A stretch of DNA of 24,000 nt, taken from positions 1 through 24,000 of the forward strand of contig NZ_VANV01000003.1 in the NCBI RefSeq assembly GCF_022496765.1, written 5' to 3'. The notes beneath the pieces were generated by a model. That model saw only the letters and a program-made list of their open reading frames with translations, was not told the DNA's origin and searched no databases. Numbering within the stretch: the first letter of the stretch is position 1; the number at the start of each line of letters is the position of its first letter. The position numbers and the translations under genes were made by a program. Source of the stretch: Acidaminobacter sp. JC074. GTDB lineage: Bacteria > Bacillota > Clostridia > Peptostreptococcales > Acidaminobacteraceae. Shown piece by piece: positions 6,665 through 8,045 of the stretch.

Positions 6665-6693
6665 TTGAAATATGTCGACTGTTTCTTTATAAT
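6665..6693 (+). promoter_or_regulatory. Putative sigma-A promoter of hgcAB
   Basis: TTGAAA (6665-6670), 17 nt spacer, TATAAT (6688-6693). Confidence 0.55.
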
Positions 6694-6737
6694 ACATTTA
6701 GAAGAAAGGTGGCATTATGTTAACTACTAAATCTTGT

Positions 6738-6771
6738 TGAGACGTTGATGTAAAAGCATCGAGTTTCGATG
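6738..6771 (+). other. In-frame UGA (6738-6740) plus downstream hairpin: candidate selenocysteine recoding site (SECIS-like), or a nonsense lesion
   Basis: The ATG at 6717 has RBS AAAGGTGG and reads MLTTKSC-TGA. The same frame then runs with no further stop into the ATG at 6783. Hairpin CATCGA-GTT-TCGATG spans 6757-6771 and its loop starts 22 nt after the UGA. Confidence 0.3.
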
Positions 6772-6782
6772 AAAGAAATATA

Positions 6783-7715
6783 ATGTTTGAAGTTTCCATG
6801 TTAAAGCATGAGGACATTTCAAATGATAAAGTCATCCATGCTTTGGATGGAAATAGACTTAAAAGACAACTTACTTTAAAAGATCACTTAGGTAGCTTAG
6901 GTGCAAGGATTGGTTTTAGAGATGATTATATGATCAAACCTGGTCTTTACCAGATCGGTCATCCAGATCCCTCGTCAGATGTTTTGGTTACTTGCAACTA
7001 TAAATTGACCATCGATCTTTTAAGAAAACATTTGAAGAAAGACTACCATATACTCGTTCTTGATACAGATGGTATCAATGTTTGGTGTGCTGCAGGAAAA
7101 GGTAAGTTTGGTACGGCAGAGCTTATATATGCCTTGAATAACTATGGACTTGAAAAGGTCGTCAATCATAAAAAGTTGATTTTGCCTCAGCTTGGCGCGC
7201 CAGGTATGCAAAAACATTTGATTCAAAAGGTAACAGGCTATCAGATTCTCTATGGACCTGTCCGTATCAGTGATATGGATTTCTACACAGAAACTTATCA
7301 AAAGACGGAAAAAATGAAAAGGATAGATTTTGATATAAAAGACAGATTGGTTTTAACACCGCTGGAGTTTATCAAGGGTTTAAAAGTGATTATTCTTGTT
7401 ATACTTTTAAGCTTAACACCCATTATAAATCTAGAACATATCTTGATGACTCTTGTGAGTTTGACTCTTGGAACCATTGTTTTTCCGGCCTTACTGCCAA
7501 TAAGACCTATGAAGATGTTCTACTTAAATGGCATTCTTTTAAGCCTTGTATGTAACTTTGTATTCTTATATCAAAACATGTCTGTCTTTAATCTAGGCTG
7601 GTATCTTTTAATGGCACTTTATACGTCTTACTTGTGTATGAATTTTACAGGATCTACGACTTTTACATCTTTATCGGGGGTAGAAAAGGAAATGGACTCA
7701 GGGTTAAAGTTTTAA
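6783..7715 (+). CDS. hgcA: Mercury methylation corrinoid protein HgcA (uninterrupted ORF; inferred ancestral gene is 6717-7768)
   Basis: PGLYQIGHP, VLVTCNYKLTIDLLR, LVLDTDGINVWCAAGKGKFGTAELI (diagnostic N[VI]WCA[AG]GK cap helix), LPQLGAPG and YGPVRISD. These are followed by four TM helices and NFTGSTTFTSLSGVEKEM. The fifth TM helix is encoded in the -1 frame at 7709-7768. Confidence 0.85.
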   Translation: MFEVSMLKHEDISNDKVIHALDGNRLKRQLTLKDHLGSLGARIGFRDDYMIKPGLYQIGHPDPSSDVLVTCNYKLTIDLLRKHLKKDYHILVLDTDGINVWCAAGKGKFGTAELIYALNNYGLEKVVNHKKLILPQLGAPGMQKHLIQKVTGYQILYGPVRISDMDFYTETYQKTEKMKRIDFDIKDRLVLTPLEFIKGLKVIILVILLSLTPIINLEHILMTLVSLTLGTIVFPALLPIRPMKMFYLNGILLSLVCNFVFLYQNMSVFNLGWYLLMALYTSYLCMNFTGSTTFTSLSGVEKEMDSGLKF

Positions 7716-7764
7716 TTAGAGGCAGTCTTCTTGCTTTACTCATGATGGTGATAGGGGTGATGGT

Positions 7765-8045
7765 ATGATGTATTTAAATGATGTGGTTACCATAAAACTA
7801 GATTCAAGTAAATGTGTTAAATGTGGGGAATGTGTTCAGGTATGTCCAAGAGAAGTTTTTAAGCTATCAAGTGAACTTCAAATAGTAAAAAAAGATGCCT
7901 GTATAGAGTGTGGTGCTTGTCAGATGAACTTCCGACAAAAGCCTTAAGCGTGGATGCTGGAACGGGTTGTGCTATTGCGATCATGGCCAGATACTTTAAA
8001 AATAGCAAATGGCTTAAGCCACTTGCTAATAAGGATTGTTGCTAA
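7765..8045 (+). pseudogene. hgcB: HgcB 2x[4Fe-4S] ferredoxin, frameshifted (frame A 7765-7947, frame B 7932-8045)
   Basis: Frame A reads MMYLNDVVTIKLDSSKCVKCGECVQVCPREVF...DACIECGACQMN, then F-R-Q-K-P-stop. Frame B from 7932 reads PTKALSVDAGTGCAIAIMARYFKNSKWLKPLANKDCC*. That gives the missing CP of the CxxCxxCxxxCP motif and the HgcB-type GCAxAI plus terminal CC tail. One base is missing at about 7930-7931. Confidence 0.75.

Follow-up and report, generated by a model that had tools for sequence, protein, structure and literature searches.

A probably inactivated hgcA–hgcB mercury-methylation gene pair with a Cys-selenocysteine-type leader in Acidaminobacter sp. JC074

The hgcA–hgcB gene pair considered here lies around positions 6665–8045 of the window, that is, the whole analyzed stretch of 24,000 nucleotides from contig NZ_VANV01000003.1 of Acidaminobacter sp. 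JC074 (Clostridia, Peptostreptococcales, Acidaminobacteraceae). This pair is probably a recently inactivated pair of pseudogenes, in a strain that is no longer a mercury methylator. In the hgcAB family, HgcB reduces the corrinoid and HgcA passes the methyl group to Hg(II). In JC074, a single nucleotide seems to have been lost from each gene, from hgcA after position 7697 and from hgcB at 7930/7931; the encoded HgcA would be devoid of its fifth transmembrane (TM) helix and the encoded HgcB would be a product of 60 residues in which a cluster ligand, the internal Cys that is essential and the pair of terminal Cys residues are missing. In addition, hgcA appears to start upstream of its annotated position, ahead of an in-frame UGA that is probably read as selenocysteine (Sec). 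The hgcAB family, the annotation of JC074 hgcA and the selenocysteine motif are already public, and nothing relevant was found in the literature on hgcA in Acidaminobacter, on strain JC074 or on hgcA pseudogenes.

Identity of the Gene Pair

The open reading frame (ORF) at 6783–7715 encodes 310 amino acids and matches WP_240838329.1, 'mercury methylation corrinoid protein HgcA [Acidaminobacter sp. JC074]', at 100% identity; the GenBank entry MCH4886604.1, annotated as a 'hypothetical protein' and located on a contig of 286.6 kb, is identical as well. The next ORF, of 60 amino acids (7765–7947), corresponds to WP_240838331.1 and is annotated as a '4Fe-4S binding protein'. All the peptides that an earlier note, made from the letters of the DNA, had quoted for this region were found again: PGLYQIGHP, VLVTCNYKLTIDLLR, LVLDTDGINVWCAAGKGKFGTAELI, LPQLGAPG, YGPVRISD and NFTGSTTFTSLSGVEKEM in the 310-aa ORF, CVKCGECVQVCP and CIECGACQMN in the 60-aa ORF, and GTGCAIAI...KDCC-stop in the ORF at 7908–8045, which lies in a different frame. 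The assignment of the pair as hgcA–hgcB, put forward in that note, is borne out, and the profile hidden Markov model (HMM) search that it had proposed as a check gave a clear HgcA match, the 310-aa ORF reaching 317.2 bits with the NCBIfam HgcA model NF040863 (cutoff 275) over profile positions 4–305 of 325, with the cap helix NVWCAAGK intact.

A different identity would be that of a paralogue, either CFeSP, a corrinoid iron–sulfur protein of the AcsC/CdhE type, or the fused HgcAB-like protein that does not methylate mercury (NF043039), with the WCAAGK match being a coincidence. These proteins share the corrinoid-binding fold PF03599 with JC074 HgcA, and the generic CdhD domain is all that Pfam gives for the ORF. 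However, the ORF scored 66.7 bits with the CFeSP gamma subunit model, whose cutoff is 306, and 190 bits with the fused HgcAB-like model, whose cutoff is 285, and since the HgcA model passes its cutoff while the paralogue models remain far below theirs, the gene should be regarded as hgcA. Moreover, the fused protein is a single polypeptide, whereas hgcA and hgcB are separate genes in JC074 and meet in an ATGA overlap, and CFeSP, unlike HgcA, has no Cys in the cap helix (Cooper et al. 2020, PMC7305189) and no TM domain. The TM domain and its NFTGSTTFTSLSGV motif are both present in JC074, and in a 14-sequence clade alignment (A2) each motif column from T289 to V300 is conserved to 90% or more, with 10 of the 12 invariant. 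The columns of NVWCAAGK are invariant in the same alignment. The probability left for a paralogue is practically negligible and, as judged from its sequence, the JC074 pair is a genuine hgcA–hgcB.

A Single Nucleotide Missing from Each Gene

The closest intact HgcA relatives are P0002 and P0003, with about 71–72% identity, a length of 328 amino acids and the ending ...GVDKEMNIAIKLLIRGAMLSLILMMIGVFL. P0003 is encoded on contig PPCM01000455.1 of a metagenome-assembled genome (GCA_002919055.1), referred to here as L001, which has a 93-aa HgcB. JC074 and L001 share the gene order ABC ATPase, ABC exporter, hgcA (328 aa in L001), hgcB (93 aa), thpR, argG, argH and racemase, and also the same −10 element, Shine–Dalgarno (SD) sequence, ATG, Cys-UGA, hairpin, ATGA overlap and 20-nt overlap with thpR; unlike JC074, L001 has both reading frames intact. 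Within hgcAB, a 1.48-kb DNA alignment of the two loci contains only two internal gaps, each of 1 nt and both in JC074. When both bases are restored, the JC074 proteins reach 328 (counted from MFEVS) and 93 amino acids and align gap-free with their L001 orthologues, with identities of 71% for HgcA and 67% for HgcB, compared with 71–88% for the neighboring genes. The six genes flanking hgcAB are equal in length to their L001 orthologues, and in eight clade relatives both sites are in frame and read straight through.

As regards hgcA, translation past the deletion yields an aberrant ...DSGLKF and a stop at 7713–7715, and the out-of-frame remnant that follows (22 codons, a hydrophobic helix) aligns to ...IKLLIRGAMLSLILMMIGVFL of P0002 and P0003. 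The 310-aa ORF had been taken by the earlier note as the whole of hgcA, with a multi-helix membrane domain. This domain is indeed present, but the encoded ORF lacks its last TM helix, the frameshift having been overlooked, and the ORF falls short of the gene at both ends, at the 5′ side (start at 6717) and at the 3′ side (1-nt deletion after 7697). A hydropathy scan also found the last hydrophobic segment missing from the encoded HgcA; the C-terminal membrane domain is incomplete as encoded and contains all five helices after one base is restored, the match with NF040863 then rising to 324.8 bits over profile positions 4–322 of 325. Among 113 HgcA homologues, 81 had a locatable SLSGV motif, in every case with 25 or more residues after it; in JC074 the motif is followed by 10, five of them frame-shifted.

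As regards hgcB, the small ferredoxin and the nearby 45-aa frame, which had been described as separate, are the two halves of one gene divided by the 1-nt deletion at 7930/7931. The first [4Fe-4S] motif, CVKCGECVQVCP, is intact, and the second reads CIECGACQMN followed by F-R-Q-K-P-stop, so that the encoded protein does not hold two complete motifs. The column of the broken codon contains Cys in all 82 other HgcB sequences, and seven relatives all read AAY TGT CC at this site. The internal-Cys column is Cys in 99% of HgcB sequences; in JC074 this residue and the C-terminal Cys pair persist in the DNA, off-frame relative to the hgcB start, and hence do not belong to the same polypeptide as the first motif. 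With the HgcB model NF040864 (cutoff 99), the 60-aa ORF scored 66.9 bits, below the cutoff, and the sequence with one base restored scored 103.1 bits over profile positions 2–93 of 93. The gene lies directly 3′ of hgcA, with an ATGA overlap at 7765–7768 with the ancestral hgcA frame, as in L001, L002 and L003.

Start of hgcA and the In-Frame UGA

The hgcA start at 6783, assumed in the earlier note, does not hold: the true start would be ATG 6717, with an SD sequence on its 5′ side and an in-frame UGA behind it, and the Sec-containing extension had been missed. Reading from this ATG gives MLTTKSC-TGA-DVDVKASSFDERNI-MFEVS..., the TGA at 6738–6740 being all that separates it from the ORF, and the position of the ATG fits the promoter-like site, whose −10 element extends to 6693 and would give a leader of about 17–24 nt. 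The pattern C-TGA-D[VI][DN][VD]K[AS]S[SR][FY]D is kept in 13 related loci (L001, L002, L003, L093, L094, L095, L085 and L087–L092), and an SD sequence and ATG are found 6–10 codons ahead of the Cys-UGA in 12 of them, L085, without an ATG at that upstream position, being the sole exception. The first six loci were found via the downstream protein and, thus, their conservation is independent of the CU (Cys-Sec) motif; the other seven, L085 and L087–L092, are metagenome loci retrieved by a DNA-pattern search, and the pattern itself imposed part of their conservation. In the ten codons after the UGA, all six variable columns among the first four loci are third positions, and L002-type loci contain 17 conserved codons after the UGA without any start codon. 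Moreover, many other HgcA N-termini show KSCC(C)(C) where the JC074 clade has KSC-U, in regions too divergent for reliable column alignment.

An N-terminal CU motif of HgcA was described by Haft and Gwadz (bioRxiv 10.1101/2022.07.06.499078; J Bacteriol 2023, 205:e0025922) from 20 examples with the context PCUGP, and it is also included in a 2026 selenoprotein review. As in those HgcA selenoproteins, the UGA of JC074 immediately follows a Cys and lies upstream of the start that used to be annotated, and the non-Sec homologues of that study have packed Cys residues at the place of the UGA. However, the flanking peptide motif of JC074 is different, and the hairpin at 6757–6771 does not come from that paper. 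By these features, the CU leader of JC074 hgcA is of the published type in a different flanking context, and selenocysteine would be inserted at UGA 6738–6740.

Alternatively, the TGA might be a true stop, MLTTKSC being a seven-codon upstream ORF or leader peptide followed by a regulatory RNA, with HgcA starting at ATG 6783. This ATG is present in JC074, L001 and L003 and is the one used by gene callers, and the segment after the TGA folds into a stable hairpin. Nevertheless, such a leader would account poorly for a conserved peptide, DVDVKASSFD, whose variation is limited to third codon positions, for the L002-type loci that offer no start codon along the conserved codons past the TGA, and for a TGA that always stands behind Cys, where other HgcA N-termini have KSCC(C); in addition, HgcA selenoproteins with the CU motif are published. 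A true stop is, therefore, very unlikely, and Sec insertion at this codon is preferred. An alternative genetic code, with TGA read as Trp or Gly, was considered and rejected, given that the flanking genes of the window stop normally at the lengths of their L001 orthologues. The 'W' in P0013 was likewise discarded as support for TGA as Trp, being a gene-caller artifact over TGA.

P0013 deserves a comment of its own. At positions 431–436 of its locus, L093, the DNA reads TGT TGA and the database protein 'HCWDVND', the gene caller having translated TGA as Trp, and mis-translated Sec codons of this kind are present in public protein collections. Another HgcA homologue, P0054, carries an N-terminal ArsD-like domain (PF06953) with CC...C instead of the usual Cys-rich leader. 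As regards the frequency of the Sec form, an in-frame Cys-TGA was found upstream of hgcA in 5 of 80 GTDB loci among the matches listed (L005, L036, L060, L083 and L084), most of the loci L005–L084 having CC, CCC or CCCC N-termini. The Sec form is a minority in this non-random sample, unlike in the literature, where it is attributed to the 'great majority' of HgcA proteins. No selA, selB, selC or selD was found in the 24-kb window, which contains no tRNA genes and no matching domains, the window being the scope of that search.

A Candidate SECIS Hairpin

The short hairpin that follows the UGA of JC074 hgcA is likely, with modest support, to be a selenocysteine insertion sequence (SECIS) element. 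In 11 sequences, 98.5% of its alignment cells are paired and one double change, from G:C to A:U, is found as a single event; the observed score was reached by 6 of 500 shuffles. A competing longer fold that includes the UGA, preferred by RNAalifold, has 91.6% of cells paired and no double changes. Pair counts, thus, slightly favor the short hairpin, a preference that depends on one compensatory event. Rfam gave no match over the whole window at gathering thresholds, and at permissive thresholds matches between 6600 and 6850 were at chance level, with no known RNA family on the UGA hairpin.

Expected Effect of the Lesions on Function

Among known systems, the closest to the JC074 pair are the HgcA and HgcB proteins of Desulfovibrio desulfuricans ND132 and Geobacter sulfurreducens PCA, reportedly described in 2013 by Parks and colleagues. 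The JC074 pair resembles them in the NVWCAAGK cap helix, the C-terminal TM domain with NFTGSTTFTSLSGV, the N-terminal CU and a neighboring ferredoxin that has two clusters, an internal Cys and CC at its terminus. However, the JC074 genes each carry a 1-nt deletion, the JC074-type leader is very short, with 6–10 residues before CU, and the Sec context is (K/T)(S/Q/N)CU-DVDVKAS, compared with the PCUGP reported for the ND132/PCA group.

In its intact form, the operon would be transcribed from its own promoter at 6665–6693, and HgcA would be translated from ATG 6717 with a short leader containing the CU pair, the decoding of UGA being probably aided by the hairpin at 6757–6771. This leader would be followed by the corrinoid-binding domain, with the cobalt-ligating Cys of the cap helix, and then by a membrane domain of five helices. 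HgcB would be translationally coupled to HgcA through the ATGA at 7765–7768 and would be a ferredoxin with two [4Fe-4S] clusters that has, in addition, an internal Cys and a pair of terminal Cys residues.

Mutagenesis of the ND132 proteins (Cooper et al. 2020, PMC7305189) bears on the parts missing in JC074. In HgcB, the C73A substitution abolishes methylation and the C94A/C95A double mutant loses 95% of the activity, whereas Cys60 is a ligand of cluster A; deletion of the TM domain of HgcA abolishes activity, and the helical extension of HgcB contacts TM4 and TM5. By analogy, loss of methylation would be the expected outcome in JC074, because residues corresponding to Cys60, Cys73 and the Cys pair are missing from the HgcB fragment, as is TM5 from the encoded HgcA. 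The earlier note had held that the organism is, or recently was, a Hg methylator: the present tense is at odds with a 60-aa HgcB fragment and a HgcA without its last helix, and the past tense fits.

Real Mutations, Working Fragments or Assembly Errors

The two 1-nt gaps appear to be real mutations. Of the other large ORFs in the window, most show essentially full-length Pfam or NCBIfam coverage, including GlnA, YitT, a pseudouridine synthase, the ABC pair, ThpR, ArgG, ArgH, a racemase, an MCP, an M48 peptidase, two ChrA proteins, ThiF, a HAD phosphatase, an Fe-ADH and IorA/B, and three (157, 193 and 118 aa) matched no Pfam family. By our own arithmetic, the probability that two indels both fall by chance in these 1.3 kb of about 20 kb of coding sequence is p ~0.004. 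Decay was gauged at family-invariant columns rather than by the ratio of nonsynonymous to synonymous changes (dN/dS), as synonymous sites are expected to be saturated at about 71% amino acid identity. Among the HgcA columns at least 90% conserved, JC074 departs at 2 of 68, one of these changes (K for P) being common to the closest relatives; among the HgcB columns of the same class, it has the majority residue at 24 of 28, the departures being I for L, K for G, T for V and the broken codon. Since departures at conserved columns are few and the promoter, SD sequence, UGA and hairpin are intact, the inactivation looks recent.

It might be argued that the ORFs work as they stand, as a HgcA of 305 or 310 amino acids with a 60-aa ferredoxin, and that the 45-aa fragment initiated at GTG might be a separate subunit. 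The truncated HgcA is, after all, above the NCBIfam cutoff, and in RefSeq this ORF is called HgcA and the 60-aa ORF is entered as a protein. However, the fourth Cys codon of the second motif is destroyed and not just divided between the ORFs, the 60-aa product, which falls short of the HgcB cutoff, lacks the Cys73 counterpart and the Cys pair, both needed according to the mutagenesis, the GTG at 7908 has no SD sequence in front of it, and such a split occurs in no relative compared. All of this makes working fragments extremely improbable. A more serious competitor is a draft assembly with errors at both gaps, in which case the operon would be intact in the living strain and JC074 would be a potential Hg methylator with a Sec-containing HgcA. 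This would agree with a promoter, SD sequence, UGA, hairpin and ATGA overlap that look functional, with highly conserved residues that are nearly all kept, and with identities to L001 (71% and 67%) that were taken as within the range of the neighboring genes; in addition, the gap in hgcA might have arisen by the shortening of a run of two bases, CC or TT according to which base was lost. On the other side, both errors would need to lie within the same 1.3 kb and none in the other ~20 kb of coding sequence of the window, the hgcB lesion is a G lost between two Ts, which is not a homopolymer context, and the GenBank and RefSeq sequences are identical. Errors in the assembly are, hence, considered unlikely, and the inactivation of both genes by real deletions the probable explanation.

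Several observations nevertheless weigh against inactivation. The deletions could stem from errors in the assembly or the consensus, the protein cluster consisting of two NCBI entries from one strain assembly, and a neutral pseudogene old enough to have gathered two indels might be expected to show several substitutions at conserved sites, of which few are present. Moreover, only one of five helices is lost, whereas the published truncations took the whole TM domain, so that a loss of function in HgcA is extrapolated from them. A second, intact copy of hgcAB may exist elsewhere in the JC074 genome; a profile scan of genome contigs with the clade alignment gave, among the matches listed, relatives at 38–46% identity.

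Transcription Unit and Gene Neighborhood

The coordinates of the features of the locus are collected in Table 1.

Table 1. Features of the hgcA–hgcB locus of JC074, in window coordinates
Feature	Position	Strand	Description
Terminator-like hairpin ending the upstream ABC-exporter operon	6629–6661	+	15-bp stem, 3-nt loop, then UUUUGU
Sigma-70-type promoter-like site, TTGAAA-17-TATAAT	6665–6693	+	11/12 consensus positions
SD sequence AAGGTGG and hgcA start ATG	6706–6712; 6717–6719	+	Read directly; in the ORF's own frame
In-frame UGA after Cys codon TGT (6735–6737)	6738–6740	+	Read as selenocysteine (putative), MLTTKSC-U-DVDVKASSFD
SECIS-like hairpin CAUCGA-GUU-UCGAUG	6757–6771	+	6 bp, G(U/G)U loop, 16 nt past the UGA
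Pre-frameshift hgcA	6717–7768	+	350 codons including Sec; stop TGA 7766–7768 overlaps the hgcB ATG
Cap-helix motif NVWCAAGK	7077–7100	+	Read from the sequence; cobalt-ligating Cys codon TGT 7086–7088
hgcA frameshift	7697–7699	+	1 nt missing; codon after GAC (7695–7697) reduced to TC (7698–7699)
Out-of-frame remnant of the last HgcA TM helix, RVKVLIRGSLLALLMMVIGVMV-stop	7700–7768	+	Frame-3 translation
Pre-frameshift hgcB	7765–8045	+	93 codons, ends KDCC-stop; Cys-Cys codons 8037–8042
hgcB frameshift	7930/7931	+	TGT, fourth Cys of the second CX2CX2CX3CP motif, now T-T; premature stop 7945–7947
Conserved internal HgcB Cys codon (GTGCA; ND132 Cys73 counterpart)	7968–7970	+	Now out of frame
thpR terminator-like hairpin	8003–8028	−	Inside the hgcB 3′ end; 11 pairs then T-run; −16.3 kcal/mol, z = −3.8

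The description of hgcAB in the earlier note as a stand-alone transcription unit among housekeeping genes, with its own promoter and a terminator separating it from the upstream ABC operon, is a fair one, as a promoter-like site follows a terminator-like hairpin and the neighbors are the gene of an ABC exporter, thpR and, preceded by a T-box leader, argGH. The promoter-like site is conserved in position in L001, where the aligned sequence is TTGATG-17-TATAAT, with the first four bases of the −35 element and the whole −10 element conserved; as a class, such sites show no excess in the window, with 8 found and 9.8 expected in shuffled sequence. The upstream hairpin has a folding energy of −15.3 kcal/mol (z = −5.5), with 0 of 200 shuffles as stable; it is absent from the output of a simple terminator scan, and L001 has a different hairpin followed by a T-run in the same place. 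Downstream of hgcB, that terminator scan found no plus-strand terminator. The convergent gene thpR (8562–8026), for an RNA 2′,3′-cyclic phosphodiesterase (TIGR02258, 119 bits), overlaps hgcB by 20 nt, and the same overlap is seen in L001 (4071–4090). The position of hgcAB is conserved in L001 and, therefore, vertical inheritance in the lineage is favored over recent acquisition.

Other features of the neighborhood are also worth recording. Directly 5′ of hgcAB, a gene for an ABC ATPase and one for a PF16962 'putative ABC exporter' recur in the window (4355–6623), in L001 (409–2677) and in L094 (1–304), and in L002 the same pair (29–2300) is located one gene further from hgcAB; this recurrence could reflect shared ancestry or a functional link. 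In L002, hgcB is directly followed (5321–6544) by a gene for a 407-aa protein with a MerR-type DNA-binding domain and an S-adenosylmethionine (SAM)-methyltransferase domain. Immediately 5′ of the hgcA SD sequence, L002 (3883–3916), L088 and L091 show a hairpin and T-run with no room for a promoter in between, which suggests control by read-through or attenuation, unlike the private promoter of JC074. In the window, a T-box leader (RF00230) at 8651–8884 (+) lies directly upstream of argG–argH, with 85.1 bits (E = 3e-19; gathering score 93), and is preceded by a promoter-like site at 8609–8637 that matches 11 of 12 positions. Two adjacent half-size genes for chromate transporters (ChrA; 16324–17422, minus strand; 182 and 187 aa), each of which spans the PF02417 profile in full, have a ThiF-family gene after them.

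Implications

It is possible, although tentative, that JC074 and its relatives represent a HgcA subtype of Acidaminobacter-like Clostridia, characterized by the leader M-x-x-T-K-x-C-U, an invariant DVDVKAS(S/R)FD and, within the codons of that peptide, its own 6-bp SECIS-type hairpin, with JC074 as its natural double knock-out. If so, this subtype would differ from the PCUGP context described so far, and, as relatives have intact genes at the same position, JC074 and such a relative would provide a strain pair for asking about the role of hgcAB and of Sec.

The value of the JC074 locus is mainly cautionary. Methylmercury producers are predicted from hgcA HMM matches, and JC074 is a potential false positive: a pipeline would count it as a methylator because its truncated HgcA passes the cutoff and RefSeq names it HgcA. 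The public annotation also hides the lesions, the hgcB partner being filed as a generic 60-aa '4Fe-4S binding protein'. Miscalls of this kind are avoided if the integrity of hgcB, the 3′ end of hgcA and its Sec-containing true start are checked. Going by its present sequence, JC074 should be left off lists of methylators, its hgcA–hgcB pair being most likely dead, and its case would document in-situ gene loss as one of the ways in which hgcAB has come to be patchily distributed in Bacillota.

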